Below are positions 8,866-38,774 of a stretch of DNA of 42,855 nucleotides, one piece after another. Under the pieces are notes generated by a model, which saw only the letters and a program-made list of their open reading frames with translations, did not search any database and was not told the DNA's origin. A program made the position numbers and the translations under genes. This DNA comes from Anaerolineae bacterium (GTDB lineage: Bacteria > Chloroflexota > Anaerolineae > B4-G1 > DUEL01): positions 1 to 42,855 of the forward strand of contig DAOTWL010000188.1 of assembly GCA_034435875.1 (NCBI GenBank), read 5' to 3'. Position 1 is the stretch's first letter. Each line of letters begins with the position of its first letter.

Positions 8866-9022
8866 CCTCACCCCTCCCCCAGCAGCTCCGCCGCAGTGAA
8901 AAATATTTTTTGTTCTTCTGGCCGGACAGAAGGCCGTTTCCGGCGATTTTCTACCCGCCTCCCCCGAAAAAGCCAAACTTCAGGGAGGGGGTGCCGCCGA
9001 AGGCGGCGGGAGTGGGGGGGAG
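8866..9022. repeat. family A GC-rich palindromic MITE/REP-like element (long variant)
   Basis: It starts with CCTCACCCCTCCCCC and ends with GGGAGTGGGGGGGAGG. It contains the GCCGCCGAAGGCGGC hairpin and the segments GCCGCAGTGAAAAATATTTT and AAAAGCCAAACTTCAGGGAGGGG, which are shared with the 17086-17345 copy. Confidence 0.6.
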
Positions 9023-12424: not shown

Positions 12425-12605
12425 AGAGCTTGTCTGAAAAATTGGGAAGGGGATAAAGATGTTCGTAGTCAGCCACGAAGCGAAGCGGAGTGGCGTTTCA
12501 GTGGGCCAAAACGGCACTCCCCTTCGTTCCGTGCCTTACTACGAACAAAACGGCACTCCCCTTCGTTCCGTGCCTGACTACGAGCGACTTTTCAGACTGG
12601 CTCTC
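12425..12605. repeat. family B hairpin element (inverted relative to 5660-5915)
   Basis: TCTGAAAAA...GTTCGTAGTCAGCCACGAAGCGAAGCGGAGTGGCG... is followed by two tandem copies of CGGCACTCCCCTTCGTTCCGTGCCTTACTACGAAC and ends in ...TTTTCAGAC. Confidence 0.6.
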
Positions 12606-14363: not shown

Positions 14364-15767
14364 ATGCGCCTGCTCATCCGCCAGGTCGCCGCCATCCCGC
14401 TGGACGGGGAAAAAGACATGCTCCCCGAAGGGGACATCGCCATAGAGGACGGGCGAATCCGGGCCGTCGGGACGGTCCCGCCCGATTTCGTCCCCGAACA
14501 GACGATAGACGGGCGGGAGTTCCTGGCCCTGCCGGCCTTCTTCAACGCCCACACCCACGCCGCGATGACCCTGGAGCGGGGCTGGGCGGAAGACCTCCCC
14601 TTTGACCGCTGGCTGAACGAGAAAATCTGGGTGGCCGAGTCGGCCCTGGAGGAAGAGGACGTCTACTGGGGCGCGGCGCTGGCCTGCTGCGAGATGATCC
14701 GCTCCGGCGTCGTCGGCTTTGCCGACCACTACTTCTGGATGCACCAGGTCGCCCGCGCGGTTCTGGAGGCCGGGATGAAAGCCCACCTGGCCTGGTGCCA
14801 GTTCGGCATCGGCGCCGAGCACGAGGTGGGCGGCGCCACGCTGGAGGACACCGTCGCCTTTATCCGGGAGTGGCACGGCGCGGCGGAGGGCCGCATCCGC
14901 TGCGCGCTGGGGCCCCATTCCCCCTACATGTGCCCGCCGGAGTTCCTGCGCCGGGTCGTGGAGGAGGCGGAGCGGCTGGGGGTGGGCATCCACCTCCACG
15001 TGGCCGAATCGGAGGAACAGGTCGCCAACTCGCTCCGGGCCTACGGCCGGACCCCGGTGGCCCATCTGGCCCACCTGGGCGTCTTGGACCACCCCACCAT
15101 CGCCGCCCACTGCATCGCCGTCACCGATGAGGACCTGGACATCCTGGCCCGGAAGGGCGTCTGGGTGGCCCATACCCCCAAGACCTACATGAAACTGGCC
15201 ATGGGGATGGCCCCGCTGGACCGCTTCCTGGCGGCGGGGGTCCGGGTGGCGCTGGGGACGGACGGGCCGGCCTCCAACAACGACCTGAACATGCTGGAGG
15301 TCCTGCGCATCACGGGGCTGGTGCACAAAAACCGCGTCGGCGACCCGGCGGCGTTTCCGCACGACCTGCTCCTGCGGCTGGCGACGCAGGAGGTATGGGG
15401 GCCTCACCCCTCCCCCAGCGGCTTCGCCGCTACCCCCTCCCCTCTCCTGACCTTCGGTCAGGAGAGGGGAGGGGGTGCCGCCGAAGGCGGCGGGGGTGGG
15501 GTGAGGTTGCGGCCCGGCGCCCCCGCCGACCTGATCCTGATGGACACCCGGGGCGTCCATTGGGCCCCGCGCCACGACCTGGCCGCCAACGTCGTCTACG
15601 CCAGCCACCCCACCGACATCCGCTACGTCTTCTGCGACGGGCGGCCCCTCCTGTGGGACGGCGAACTGGTGACGCTGGACGAGGAGCGCATCCGCTACGA
15701 GGCGGAGCGGCGGGCCTTCCGCATGGTTGGCACCCCCATGCGGCAGGTGCGGAGATACACAGGATAG
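14364..15767 (+). CDS. mtaD: 5-methylthioadenosine/S-adenosylhomocysteine deaminase-like amidohydrolase, carrying a 35-codon repeat-derived insert
   Basis: FFNAHTHAAMTLERGWAEDLPFDRWLNEKIW...FADHYF...HVAESEEQV...AHC...GTDGPASNNDLNMLE...ADLILMD match MtaD/TrzA-type deaminases. SD GGAGGA upstream. Confidence 0.8.
   Translation: MRLLIRQVAAIPLDGEKDMLPEGDIAIEDGRIRAVGTVPPDFVPEQTIDGREFLALPAFFNAHTHAAMTLERGWAEDLPFDRWLNEKIWVAESALEEEDVYWGAALACCEMIRSGVVGFADHYFWMHQVARAVLEAGMKAHLAWCQFGIGAEHEVGGATLEDTVAFIREWHGAAEGRIRCALGPHSPYMCPPEFLRRVVEEAERLGVGIHLHVAESEEQVANSLRAYGRTPVAHLAHLGVLDHPTIAAHCIAVTDEDLDILARKGVWVAHTPKTYMKLAMGMAPLDRFLAAGVRVALGTDGPASNNDLNMLEVLRITGLVHKNRVGDPAAFPHDLLLRLATQEVWGPHPSPSGFAATPSPLLTFGQERGGGAAEGGGGGVRLRPGAPADLILMDTRGVHWAPRHDLAANVVYASHPTDIRYVFCDGRPLLWDGELVTLDEERIRYEAERRAFRMVGTPMRQVRRYTG
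15402..15506. repeat. family A palindromic element (105 nt) inside the mtaD-like CDS, in frame
   Basis: CCTCACCCCTCCCCC-AGCGGCTTCGCCGCT-ACCCCCTCCCCTCTCCTGACC-TTCG-GGTCAGGAGAGGGGAGGGGGT-GCCGCCGAAGGCGGC-GGGGGTGGGGTGAGG. Its reverse complement differs from the 34592-34696 copy at 3 of 105 positions by my manual alignment. Confidence 0.8.
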
Positions 15768-17085: not shown

Positions 17086-17345
17086 TTCCTCACCCCACCC
17101 CCCGGCCCTTCGGGCCGGGGGAGGGGCGAGGCCCCTCCCCCAGCCCCCTCCCCTGAACTTGGGCTCTTTGGGCGAAGGGGCGGAAAAGAAAATTGGGAAA
17201 CCGCCCCAAACGGGCGAGAGGGAGTAAAAAGAAAATATTTTTCATTGCGGCGGCTTCGCCGCCGCAATGAAAAATATATTCTCTTTCATCCCGCTGGCGA
17301 AAAGGCCAAACTTGAGGGGAGGGTCAGAGGGAAGGGTGAGGAGCA
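17086..17345. repeat. family A-related long palindromic element (about 260 nt) with an AT-rich central hairpin
   Basis: CCTCACCCCACCCCCC is at the left end and GGGAAGGGTGAGG at the right end. The central perfect hairpin is TTTTTCATTGCGGCGGC-TTCG-GCCGCCGCAATGAAAAA (about 17237-17277). Confidence 0.65.
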
Positions 17346-32851: not shown

Positions 32852-34579
32852 ATGGAACTTGCCCGATTTCTCGCAGTAGCGCGAGGTGATGAGCCCGCGG
32901 AACTGGTGCTCCGGAACGGACGGGTCATCAATGTGTACACGGCCGAGATCATAGAGGCCGATATTGCTGTTGCGGACGGCCACATTGTCGGCGTGGGGGG
33001 CGGATACGACGGCCGCCAGGAGATAGACCTGGGGGGCCGGTACGTCTGCCCCGGCCTGATAGATGCCCATGTCCACATAGAGTCCTCTATGGTGACCCCC
33101 TATCAGTTCGCCCGTGCCGTCGTCCCTCGGGGGACGACGACCGTCGTCTGCGACCCCCACGAAATCGCCAACGTGGCCGGGACGGCCGGGATCCGCTATA
33201 TGCTGGACGCGTCAGAGGGCCTGCCGCTGACCGTCTACGTGAACCTGCCCTCCTGTGTGCCGGCCACAACCATGGGGACCGCCGGCGCTGAATTGAGCGC
33301 AGCCGACCTTCTGCCGCTGGCTGACCTTCCCCGGGTCCTGGGTCTGGCGGAGTTGATGAACGTCCCGGGCCTGGTCCTGGGATTCCCCGACGTGCTGGCG
33401 AAGGTGGCGGCGTTCCAGGACCGGGTGATAGACGGCCACGCCCCGGGCATCGGCGGGAAGTGGCTCCAGGCATACGTGGGTGCCGGGCCGGGTTCAGACC
33501 ACGAATGCACCACTGCCGCCGAGATGCTGGAGAAACTCCGCCTGGGCATGCGGGTCTTCATCCGGGAGTCCACGGCGGCGAAAAATCTGCGCGCGCTGAT
33601 ACCGGCCATCACGCCCCAGAACAGCCGTCGGTGTGCTTTCTGCACCGATGACCGCCATCCGGCTGACCTGCTGGACGAGGGGCATCTGGACCATCTCATC
33701 CGGCTGGCGGTGGCTGAAGGGTTGGACCCGGTCACGGCCATCCAGATGGCTACCCTGAACGCGGCCGAATGGTTCCGTCTGCGCGACCGGGGAGCCATCG
33801 CCCCCGGTCTGCGGGCCGACCTGGTGGTCTTTTCGGACCTGAAGAATTTCCGCCCGGAAATGGTCTTTTCCGCCGGGCATCTGGTGGCTCAGGCCGGAGA
33901 ACCGGTTGGCCGCTGGGAGGAGCCTCCGGCGGACGACTCCCCGGTGCGGGGGACGGTGCGGGTGGACTGGGGACGGGTCTCCCTGCGGATTGAGGCCCCA
34001 GATGCTGGTGCCCGGAGGGTCCGGGTGCGGGTCATCGGTGCTATCCCCGACCAGGTCCTGACCGAGCACCGGGTAGAGGAACTTCCCGTGCGGGACGGGG
34101 AGGTAATGGCCGACCCGGAGCGGGACATCCTGAAACTGGCCGTCATAGAGCGGCACCGGGGGACGGGCAACGTGGGGCTCGGGTTTGTGCAGGGGCTGGG
34201 ACTTCGCCAGGGAGCATTGGCGGGAAGCGTGGGGCACGATGCCCACAATCTCATCGTCGCTGGCTGCGATGATGTCTCTATGATGACGGCCGCCCGCGCG
34301 GTGGCCCGGATGGGTGGCGGCCTGGCCGTCGCGGTGGGGGAGCGGGTGCTGGCGACGGTGCCGCTGCCGGTCGCTGGCCTGATGTCGGACCAGCTGGTGG
34401 AGACGGTCCGCTTCCAGATGGACAGCCTGACCCGGGCGGCGAGATCGCTGGGGACCGCTCTGCCGGACCCCTTGATGACCATGAGTTTCCTGCCCCTGGA
34501 GGTCATCCCGGCGCTGAAGTTGACGGATCAGGGGCTGGTGGACGTGGAACAGTTTGCCTTTGTATCCCTTTTCGTCTGA
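32852..34579 (+). CDS. ade: adenine deaminase
   Basis: LVLRNGRVINVYTAEIIEADIAVADGHIVGVG...PGLIDAHVHIESSMVTP...GTTTVVCDPHEIANV... is canonical Ade. 575 aa. SD AAGGAGG upstream. Confidence 0.92.
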   Translation: MELARFLAVARGDEPAELVLRNGRVINVYTAEIIEADIAVADGHIVGVGGGYDGRQEIDLGGRYVCPGLIDAHVHIESSMVTPYQFARAVVPRGTTTVVCDPHEIANVAGTAGIRYMLDASEGLPLTVYVNLPSCVPATTMGTAGAELSAADLLPLADLPRVLGLAELMNVPGLVLGFPDVLAKVAAFQDRVIDGHAPGIGGKWLQAYVGAGPGSDHECTTAAEMLEKLRLGMRVFIRESTAAKNLRALIPAITPQNSRRCAFCTDDRHPADLLDEGHLDHLIRLAVAEGLDPVTAIQMATLNAAEWFRLRDRGAIAPGLRADLVVFSDLKNFRPEMVFSAGHLVAQAGEPVGRWEEPPADDSPVRGTVRVDWGRVSLRIEAPDAGARRVRVRVIGAIPDQVLTEHRVEELPVRDGEVMADPERDILKLAVIERHRGTGNVGLGFVQGLGLRQGALAGSVGHDAHNLIVAGCDDVSMMTAARAVARMGGGLAVAVGERVLATVPLPVAGLMSDQLVETVRFQMDSLTRAARSLGTALPDPLMTMSFLPLEVIPALKLTDQGLVDVEQFAFVSLFV

Positions 34580-34591
34580 GTGGAGGGGCAA

Positions 34592-34696
34592 CCTCACCCC
34601 TCCCCCGCCGCCTTCGGCGGCACCCCCTCCCCTCTCCTGACCAAAGGTCAGGAGAGGGGAGGGGGTAGCGGCGAAGCCGCTGGGGGTGGGGTGAGG
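34592..34696. repeat. family A palindromic element (105 nt)
   Basis: CCTCACCCCTCCCCC-GCCGCCTTCGGCGGC-ACCCCCTCCCCTCTCCTGACC-AAAG-GGTCAGGAGAGGGGAGGGGGT-AGCGGCGAAGCCGCT-GGGGGTGGGGTGAGG, 12 nt after the ade stop. Confidence 0.8.
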
Positions 34697-36876: not shown

Positions 36877-37036
36877 CCTCACCCCTCCCCCTGACCCCCT
36901 CCCCTCTCCCGAACGAAGTTCGGGAGAGGGGAGGGGGGAGCGGCGAAGGGCCATCCCTCGCCGGCGCTCGGGACGGGATGCCGAAGAGCCACGGCCCGTG
37001 GGGCTCGCCCGAGGCGCCGCTGGGAGTGGGGTGAGG
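36877..37036. repeat. family A palindromic element (160-nt variant)
   Basis: CCTCACCCCTCCCCC...CCCTCCCCTCTCCCGAAC-GAAG-TTCGGGAGAGGGGAGGGG...GGGAGTGGGGTGAGG. Confidence 0.6.
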
Positions 37037-38165: not shown

Positions 38166-38283
38166 CGGCAATGACCTCCACTTCAGGGCTGACTCGTTAC
38201 GGCCACTGGCGGCCCACGTCCTGGATGGCGCGGAAGATCGCGTCGTATCAGCCCGATGCAGGCTGTTGCAGTTTAACAAACGC

Positions 38284-38407
38284 CCTCACCCCACCCCTAT
38301 ACCCCTCCCCTCTCCCGCTTGCGGGAGAGGGAAGGGGCCGGGGGAGGGGTGAGGGCCCCGCCGCCGAAAGCGAGCGGGAGAGGGGCCGGGGGTGAGGCGG
38401 GTGAGGG
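38284..38407. repeat. family A-related GC-rich palindromic element
   Basis: CCTCACCCCACCCC...CCCTCCCCTCTCCCGC-TTGC-GGGAGAGGGAAGGGG...GGGGTGAGG...GGGGTGAGGCGGGTGAGGG. Confidence 0.55.
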
Positions 38408-38658
38408 CGAGTCGCAGTTGATTGCCCAAATAATTTTTCCAGTTGCAAAAGCCTGCGGTACGCCTGATGCAGGCTGAGCGCCAGGGCGGGGACGGCATGG
38501 GCTTTGCAGGCGCGGCAGGGCACAAGCCAATGCCACCTTGCAGGGGTGCCACAGCATTGGTTGGGTTTGAAACAACATCAAAGCGGCAAGCCTCGCCTGT
38601 GTAGGGGCGACCCTTGCGGTCGCCCTATGGTGCAGCCAGGCCTGGCGGCCTGCGCTAC

Positions 38659-38687
38659 TTGCCAAAATCCGCAATGCCTGCTATAAT
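38659..38687 (+). promoter_or_regulatory. tRNA promoter, TTGCCA-17 nt-TATAAT
   Basis: TTGCCA at 38659-38664 and TATAAT at 38682-38687, 9 nt upstream of the mature tRNA 5' end. Confidence 0.6.
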
Positions 38688-38696
38688 ACAAATCAG

Positions 38697-38774
38697 CGGG
38701 GCGTGGCGCAGTTTGGCTAGCGCGCTACAATGGGGTTGTAGAGGCCGACGGTTCAAATCCGTCCGCCCCGACCA
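38697..38774 (+). tRNA. tRNA-Pro (anticodon GGG), CCA encoded
   Basis: Manual cloverleaf: acceptor stem CGGGGCG/CGCCCCG, D stem GCGC/GCGC, anticodon stem CTACA/TGTAG with loop AUGGGGU (U33, GGG, G37), T stem GACGG/CCGTC with loop TTCAAAT, discriminator A, then CCA. Confidence 0.93.

Follow-up and report, generated by a model that had tools for sequence, protein, structure and literature searches.

A palindromic repeat of an undescribed family read in frame, probably as a tolerated loop, in an MtaD-like amidohydrolase gene of a thermophilic Chloroflexota bacterium

Rickettsia palindromic elements (RPEs) are palindromes of approximately 100–150 bp that are present in many copies and lie in frame in unrelated housekeeping genes, in which they are read through as a conserved peptide that is seemingly compatible with the fold of the host protein, while other copies are intergenic (Ogata et al. 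2000 Science 290:347; 2002 Genome Res 12:808; summarised in PMC10969869 and PMC3733652). Repetitive extragenic palindromic (REP) sequences may also lie within genes; the portion of Di Nocera et al. (2013, PMC3733652) dealing with intragenic REPs describes REPs and REP dimers or clusters that encode 20–82 residues, notably in DNA repair genes, and includes one instance in which the recB genes of two Xanthomonas species carry different REPs at roughly the same site. According to a 2024 review, RPEs are unusually frequent, and similar protein evolution mediated by miniature transposable elements with inverted repeats (MITEs) in other prokaryotes is 'conceivable' (PMC10969869). Here, we describe a 105-nt palindromic repeat, a member of what we term family A, that lies in frame within a gene for an MtaD-like amidohydrolase in a 42,855-nt contig of an Anaerolineae bacterium (DAOTWL010000188.1, assembly GCA_034435875.1), the whole of which is referred to as the window. 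We estimate a probability of about 0.62 that a family-A copy was absorbed into the MtaD-like coding sequence at a nest of repeats, where it is translated and tolerated as a passenger loop.

Family A resembles RPEs in its length and copy number, in its in-frame copies in unrelated genes, which seem compatible with the fold of the host protein, and in its intergenic copies. However, RPEs are hosted by an intracellular alphaproteobacterium, whereas family A occurs in free-living thermophilic Chloroflexota, is extremely GC-rich, contains three nested hairpins and loses or gains modules; it replaces native codons, including those of an ordered helix, instead of simply adding a loop, and it lands where other repeat families already sit. 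No sequence kinship with RPEs is apparent, and homology of family A to RPE-1 to RPE-10 is unlikely, as judged from the GC-rich composition and the host phylum. The repeats that fill the deaminase site in orthologues (GTAGGGGCAACC..., GTAGGTCGG...CCGACCTAC) share the head and the palindrome of GTAG REPs, and the bias toward DNA repair genes reported in PMC3733652 has its counterpart here, since Mfd and the UvrC end are also repeat-bearing. In contrast to GTAG/CGTC REPs, which measure 20–40 nt, family A has neither a GTAG nor a CGTC head, starts with CCTCACCCC and measures 105 nt; furthermore, at least 14 alleles at one codon position, with nested duplications, exceed the recB case, the single same-site one in the portion of PMC3733652 on intragenic REPs, and the REP catalogue of that paper does not extend to Thermoflexales. 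Like GTAG-type REPs and bacterial interspersed mosaic elements (BIMEs), family A is mostly extragenic and located near the 3' ends of genes. BIMEs and REP doublets forming hairpins (REPINs), which occur with REP-associated tyrosine transposases (RAYTs; Nunvar 2010, PMC2817692; Bertels and Rainey 2011, PMC3116915), additionally share with it composite clusters of inverted hairpins, a conserved stem mismatch and the gathering of new repeats at existing ones; however, family A is devoid of the GTAG tetranucleotide, and no RAYT gene was found in the approximately 250 kb searched with an approximate query. The terminal inverted repeats of MITEs are present in family A, but a target-site duplication is not. 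Mitochondrial GC clusters are occasionally found in frame in coding genes. These clusters and double-hairpin elements (yeast mitochondrial DNA, PMC4478555; repetitive hairpin elements of sponges, PMC2800124) are GC-rich mobile hairpins that nest mutually, as observed here, although they belong to organelle genomes and to unrelated sequence families. Since a target-site duplication and a GTAG head are both absent, family A is neither a classical MITE nor a classical REP, and it is best named a composite palindrome, RPE-like or BIME-like, whose family is undescribed; a literature search found no paper on Thermoflexus repeats.

The element, its junctions and its host gene

The element is a full-length family-A palindrome at positions 15402–15506 of the plus strand, equivalent to residues 347–381 of the host open reading frame (ORF). 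Its 15-nt outer stem, formed by CCTCACCCCTCCCCC (15402–15416) and GGGGGTGGGGTGAGG (15492–15506) with one conserved T·T mismatch, encloses three hairpins, i.e., a left hairpin at 15417–15431 (AGCGGCTTCGCCGCT), a central long hairpin of 45 nt at 15432–15476 and a right hairpin at 15477–15491 (GCCGCCGAAGGCGGC). An earlier interpretation of the window from its letters, the sequence-only reading, had taken the element for a full-length repeat that, once reverse-complemented, differs at three of its 105 positions from the sister copy at 34592–34696; this count is exact, and the mismatches are located at element positions 10, 54 and 96. A 27-nt core has only two sites in the window, where none is expected (100 shuffles), and no Rfam family matches at the element. 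The RNA fold of 15395–15515 reaches −107.6 kcal/mol (z = −9.8), which none of 200 shuffles equals; at 75 °C, the 105 nt alone give −48.5 kcal/mol, compared with a mean of −14.8 (sd 3.4) for other 105-nt stretches of the deaminase gene. An in-phase start, a length divisible by three and the absence of a stop had also been claimed, and all three hold: (15402 − 14364)/3 = 346, so that the element begins at codon 347, and its 35 codons translate without a stop in the host frame as PHPSPSGFAATPSPLLTFGQERGGGAAEGGGGGVR. Three of the six frames of the 105-nt element are stop-free, so that approximately half of random insertions would preserve the ORF, and tolerance by the host protein is the real filter on insertions. 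Tryptic peptides expected from the window protein include LATQEVWGPHPSPSGFAATPSPLLTFGQER and GGGAAEGGGGGVR.

The element stands in the place of a conserved segment. Between ATQ and L(R/K)PG, the length is exactly 13 residues, of the form xxAxA[LM]GFxxSG[VIA], in 82 of the 90 homologues aligned, and the only eight that deviate are the eight closest, all of which belong to the Thermoflexus clade. In homologues outside this clade, ATQE and L(R/K)PG are separated by 12 residues, e.g., AARALGFAESGV, a length fixed in 82 of 82; the window protein instead continues from ATQE with VWG and the 35 element residues. Val-Trp-Gly is encoded by a 9-nt left junction, GTATGGGGG (15393–15401, plus strand), which on comparison with orthologue DNA is neither native nor part of the element and may be what is left of an earlier REP, namely of its GTAG head. 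The orthologous allele L018 shares this left junction, CAG GAR followed by GTA, and then continues with a GTAG-headed REP array. At the right junction (15507–15509, plus strand), TTG (Leu) is found where all compared orthologues have CTG, and the native frame resumes as LRPGAPADL, in keeping with the previous description of the flanks as conserved C-terminal amidohydrolase segments. The suspicion that some native codons had been displaced was likewise borne out: 12 native codons are gone, and 9 odd bases have been added.

The replaced codons are those of the short helix QEAARA and of the LGF..SGV turn. In the model of the native orthologue, this region has block-mean predicted local distance difference test (pLDDT) values of 95–98 and comprises helix 342–347 followed by the turn. 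It lies where the final helix following the catalytic barrel meets the strand that opens the C-terminal β-sandwich. The sequence-only reading had suggested predicting the structure of the window protein, for which AlphaFold yields a normal fold outside the insert (mean pLDDT 85.8; pTM 0.88) with the metal ligands intact, while residues 347–377, the sole low-confidence stretch of at least three residues (pLDDT <50), are predicted as a disordered loop. In this model, the 35 residues, which are rich in Gly, Pro, Ser and Ala, most likely form a disordered surface loop. A small ordered element has therefore been exchanged for what is probably a disordered loop, which sets the event apart from a clean loop insertion.

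The host gene (14364–15767, plus strand) encodes an MtaD-like (TRZ/ATZ-type) metal-dependent amidohydrolase/deaminase of 467 aa, as identified with Pfam, the Protein Data Bank (PDB) and Foldseek, whereas orthologues outside the Thermoflexus clade mostly have 441 aa. The ORF matches Amidohydro_1 of Pfam (9.6e-51), and its best solved relative is MtaD 4f0r (4.5e-61 by sequence; Foldseek TM-score 0.84/0.89). It shares its fold with MtaD and TM0936-type methylthioadenosine/S-adenosylhomocysteine deaminases (PDB 4f0r, 1p1m and 4gbd; TM-score 0.84–0.89), including the amidohydrolase TIM barrel and β-sandwich with HxH, H, H and D ligands that are characteristic of the class; however, it differs from them by an identity of approximately 29% and by an NCBIfam score below the equivalog cut-off (best 392.6 bits versus 609). 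Since the native orthologue is also under the cut-off (438.7 bits), 'MtaD-like' is the furthest that the name can go, and the substrate is not fixed by the family match. The presumed metal and catalytic residues, H63, H65, H212, E215, H249 and D300, occupy invariant columns, the window sequence included. The gene order, i.e., Amidohydro_3 (minus strand), the host gene (plus), a threonine synthase-like PALP gene (plus), a class-V aminotransferase gene and MnmA, is conserved on orthologous contigs, which indicates that the compared genes are true orthologues. In protein clustering, the window deaminase forms a singleton cluster.

A nest of repeats at one codon position

Comparison of orthologue DNA revealed that every deviating allele holds repeat-derived DNA at this codon position of the deaminase gene. 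At least 14 distinct alleles of the Thermoflexus clade have 4–66 extra residues, and all are in frame and stop-free. They were retrieved by tblastn, by which frameshifted alleles would also have surfaced; since the retrieved alleles are all in frame, it can be argued that selection maintains the ORF. Most alleles carry GTAG-headed REP-type hairpins, variously duplicated, nested and decayed, in which the units GTAGGGGCAACC..GGTTGCCCC, GGGGCAGGGGCAAGCCCTGCCCCTAC and GTAGGTCGGTTTGACAAACCGACCTAC are visible. The alleles L021, L027, L028 and L032 combine GTAGGGGCAACCCTTGCGGTTGCCCC with GGGGCAGGGGCAAGCCCTGCCCCTAC; longer nested REP forms are seen in L022, L025, L026, L031 and L033, and short repeat remnants in L019, L023, L024, L030 and L034. 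Four tandem units of a different REP, GTAGGTCGGTTTGACAAACCG...CCTAC, make up the L018 allele, and the largest allele, L072 (65–346), is a duplicated nested REP cluster that adds 66 residues in frame. The inserts of L021, L018 and L022 were folded, and hairpins were obtained in all three.

Among the alleles compared, AARALGF is lost only in the window and L018. The two are exclusive sisters in 1 of 200 bootstraps of a neighbor-joining tree, the quartet sites for their grouping split 16/10/8, and their flanking DNA shows no shared tract; the tree pattern around them may reflect recombination or a near-star phylogeny. The native hairpin at the target, with the stem CTCGG..CCGAG, is weak and not significant (z = −1.8). 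Of the REP type that occupies the deaminase site elsewhere in the clade, the window has a single copy, the GTAG-headed hairpin GTAGGGGCGACCCTTGCGGTCGCCC within 38601–38771, approximately 70 nt upstream of a tRNA gene (38697–38771).

A possible route is that transposition or recombination at hairpins brought family A into a pre-existing GTAG REP cluster. Flanking repeat and native DNA would have been lost on arrival, leaving the element and 9 junction bases in place of 12 native codons. The in-frame, stop-free product would have survived in that the junction of barrel and β-sandwich tolerates extra residues, and only outcomes that are in frame, stop-free and structurally tolerated would pass selection. 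The family-A element would accordingly be a passenger, not an adaptation.

Constraint on the enzyme and competing explanations

The host gene is under purifying selection at the lineage level, as pairwise comparisons of the window gene with seven orthologues give dN/dS values of 0.10–0.14. The window lineage has undergone 8 synonymous and 7 non-synonymous changes (pN/pS 0.30), and the pN/pS of other lineages ranges from 0.09 to 0.44. The terminal branch of L018, which is also without AARALGF, carries 15 synonymous and 5 non-synonymous changes (pN/pS 0.11). From the sequence comparisons and the structural model, the deaminase is probably still functional. The recurrence of in-frame repeat alleles, the purifying selection and the predicted intactness of the fold favor a tolerated Gly/Pro-rich loop, toward which the evidence leans, over a pseudogene.

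Several points weigh against a tolerated passenger loop. The pN/pS of the window lineage is derived from just 15 changes. The element copy is pristine, with all stems intact and 97–98% identity to copies elsewhere, and the family-A event is for this reason perhaps too recent for dN/dS. The lost segment contains F350 and G354, both of which are invariant in the 82 native sequences, and it is ordered in the native model instead of being a free loop; a loss of activity or stability, on which AlphaFold cannot judge, is plausible. The route of arrival is one that we infer, because no transposase, target-site duplication or empty-site allele was found. Target-site duplications were absent from both window copies and from the copies in L001–L022, and for the deaminase event no empty-site allele was found; the intergenic regions compared were too diverged to define empty sites. 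A tblastn search with E. coli RayT, an approximate query, gave no match in the window and the loci (approximately 250 kb), and the window contains no RAYT-like or DUF559-like gene.

The sequence-only reading had left two options, a very recent pseudogene that still looks intact or an enzyme that tolerates the loop. The recurrent alleles and the purifying selection now tip the evidence to the loop, and the pseudogene is retained as an unlikely alternative. It supposes that the loss of the helix and the turn killed or destabilized the enzyme and that the ORF remains intact owing to 35 stop-free codons and to the little time elapsed. The loss of the invariant F350 and G354 and of the ordered helix 342–347 would fit this supposition, as would the undecayed state of the element, with three of 105 positions different from its sister and all stems intact, the roughly even chance that a random insertion of this 105-nt element keeps the ORF, and a pN/pS in the window lineage above those of L018, L019 and L027. 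However, L018 has a different array with the same left junction, has also lost AARALGF and is nevertheless constrained, and the alleles of the nest demonstrate that the site tolerates 4–66 extra residues. The window gene moreover has no frameshift and no stop and keeps its catalytic residues, and 7 non-synonymous to 8 synonymous changes are far from the neutral ratio of approximately 3:1. A selected function, in which the mRNA hairpins or the protein loop would serve as a translational pause at the domain boundary, in mRNA stability or as a functional loop, is improbable. It could draw on the stability of the structure at 75 °C (−48.5 versus −14.8 kcal/mol for the rest of the gene), on the position of the site at a domain junction, on the recurrence of repeats at one codon position in many lineages and on the high conservation of the family between genomes. 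Nevertheless, the inserts at the site differ wholly between lineages in family, length and sequence, and several are decaying remnants, which argues for tolerance and not for selection on sequence or structure; no insert is present in homologues beyond the clade, and the peptide is predicted to be disordered.

Two further explanations concern the origin of the 35 residues. A repeat misplaced in the gene by metagenomic mis-assembly is very improbable; the element is repeated in the genome and the protein is a singleton cluster, as an artefact would have it, but both flanks belong to one gene in one frame with conserved synteny, which excludes a chimera of two loci, and this codon position is occupied by other repeats in assemblies made independently from many samples. 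Furthermore, 105 nt is probably shorter than a typical sequencing read, for which we assumed the length. That the residues are ancestral, with the dispersed repeats derived from them, has next to no probability. Its points of contact are the tripeptide GFA, common to SGFAAT of the element and the native LGFAES, and the similar 10-mers GGCTTCGCCG and GGGTTCGCCG. The sequence-only reading had noted that a homologous 35-residue segment in repeat-free orthologues would speak for this origin; no such segment was found, as 82 of the 90 homologues carry the unrelated, fixed 13-residue segment, and copies of the element are scattered over unrelated genes and intergenic stretches in several genomes. 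The native origin is thus refuted.

Family A in other genes, in the window and across genomes

The in-frame copy in the deaminase gene has counterparts elsewhere. In the HdrA-like flavoprotein, the element forms residues 245–279, inside the Pyr_redox_2 domain (156–505), and in a DUF2298 membrane protein it forms residues 652–677, inside a domain spanning 117–729; in-frame family-A copies are also found in a CpXC protein and, together with tandem GTAG REPs, in the Mfd gene. Pfam domains span or flank the element in all four genes. At 2094–2170 of L001, the element bridges the uvrC end and the murE start without a stop, resulting in a 1182-aa ORF with UvrC and Mur ligase domains. Of eight in-gene copies, six are read in frame 0 (..SPLLT[FK]GQERGGG..), two in frame 2 and none in a stop-containing frame. 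In the HdrA-like gene, the element replaces a variable loop, for which orthologues read GVGEPLK or PVGAGLAPAQVQ, the latter being apparently REP-derived. This loop, which hosts family A at 967–1071 of L008, varies in length across the orthologues P0121–P0173, with PETLKLETLKPET repeats in P0173, and is apparently a second nest of repeats in coding DNA. In L015 (2–3364), the stretch of Mfd that separates the UvrB-interaction domain from the RID domain contains several in-frame segments of repeat origin, including tandem VGATLAVAPN units, the GTAG REP of the deaminase site and family-A copies. A word-index protein search with a 41-aa insert query gave no match although the database includes the insert-bearing P0121, the index being weak for short low-complexity queries. 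Similarly, phmmer with the 35-residue peptide against 1.84 billion representatives, a search of low statistical power in which clustering at 50% hides insert-bearing members, yielded five matches, each a short ORF that overlies an intergenic copy and is probably spurious.

Thermoflexus/Thermoflexales (Chloroflexota) genomes commonly contain family A. The 43-kb window contains two full and at least five partial copies, and a 41-nt core matches 17 further loci in Thermoflexus, Thermoflexales and "Anaerolineae" metagenome-assembled genomes. Approximately one quarter of the sampled copies are intragenic; the other window copies are intergenic. The sister copy (34592–34696, minus strand, 102 of 105 positions identical) begins 12 nt past the stop of an adenine deaminase gene (32852–34579) and lies upstream of an M23 peptidase gene. 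A partial member at 36877–36950 (minus strand) has a variant central hairpin with compensated pairing, CCCGAAC..GTTCGGG, and one outer arm. A split member at 8866–9022 (plus strand) consists of two halves, the left outer arm and left hairpin (8866–8894) and the right hairpin and outer arm (8983–9022), around an AT-rich insert that takes the place of the central hairpin. Two short family-related palindromes of undefined strand are intergenic; the one at 38282–38356 shares the outer-stem sequence CCTCACCCC...GGGGTGAGG, and the other, at 17088–17146, is located just past the stop of the threonine synthase-like gene.

The outer arms of 15 nt constitute terminal inverted repeats, CCTCACCCC[T/A]CCCCC and GGGGG[T/A]GGGGTGAGG, and any of the three inner hairpins can be absent from modular copies. 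Across genomes, full-length copies have a mean column identity of 94%, with variation mostly in the loops and stems that are almost invariant; compensated stems in divergent copies, e.g., CCCGAAC..GTTCGGG and GGCGCC..GGCGCC, were recognized by eye. Modules are inverted independently of each other across the copies at 15402–15506, 34592–34696 and in L002–L013: the central loop is TTC/TTT in some and GAA/AAA in others, and the outer-stem mismatch is T·T or A·A, which looks like flip/flop of palindrome parts. Many copies (L004, L007, L013 and L002) are centered in another palindrome, CGTAACTATTCAG ... CTGAATAGTTACG, and bear an asymmetric tail of 4 nt, either CCYT at one side or AAGC at the opposite one, which suggests nesting of family A in a second repeat family that is absent from the window. 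In L012, direct copies of a family-A variant at 890–967 and 1361–1438 flank a DUF559 (PD-(D/E)XK endonuclease-like) ORF, and a CHAT-domain gene holds this whole unit, nested within it in frame; in L011, an element comes immediately after a sequence similar, by eye, to a DUF559 C-terminus, for which Pfam gave no confirmation. DUF559 may be linked with the mobility of family-A repeats.

Other repeats of the window are intergenic. The clusters at 8895–8982 and 17214–17330 share the AT-rich core GAAAAATAT[T/A]TT, in a window that is otherwise 66% GC, as well as the motif AAAAGCCAAACTTCAGGGAGGGGG / AAAAGGCCAAACTTGAGGGGAGGG; at 8895–8982, the core stands in place of the central hairpin of family A, and it may be a promoter-like or a separate mobile unit. 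Beside the Amidohydro_3 gene, a large composite inverted repeat (12455–12591) has arms of 39–44 nt that are 82–85% complementary and contain CGTAGTCAG, and it has no sequence kinship to family A.

Two aspects are less ordinary, namely a single codon position at which so many alleles form a repeat nest and a gene that has lost a conserved ordered helix with no obvious relaxation of constraint. We tentatively propose, as a doubtful generalization, the existence of coding repeat nests, in which loop codons of Thermoflexales housekeeping genes (MtaD-like, HdrA-like, Mfd and others) would act as landing pads where several hairpin families, one after the other, insert, duplicate, nest and supplant each other without ever leaving the frame. 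Hairpin-targeting insertion inside genes would be implied, and family A, with 105 nt equal to 35 codons and an open frame 0 in either orientation, would owe part of its form to selection for translatability. If this were true, such loops would be hypervariable in length between close lineages. The deaminase locus would extend the RPE phenomenon, i.e., the conversion of selfish palindromes into protein segments, to free-living, thermophilic and GC-rich Chloroflexota, here a hot-spring bacterium. It also provides a natural allelic series, from the native form to forms with 4–66 extra residues and with or without loss of the conserved helix, which could be used to study how an enzyme tolerates repeat-encoded loops at approximately 70 °C and what stable mRNA hairpins cost. 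Annotators should also be aware that the Gly/Pro-rich low-complexity 'linkers' of these genomes are repeat DNA.

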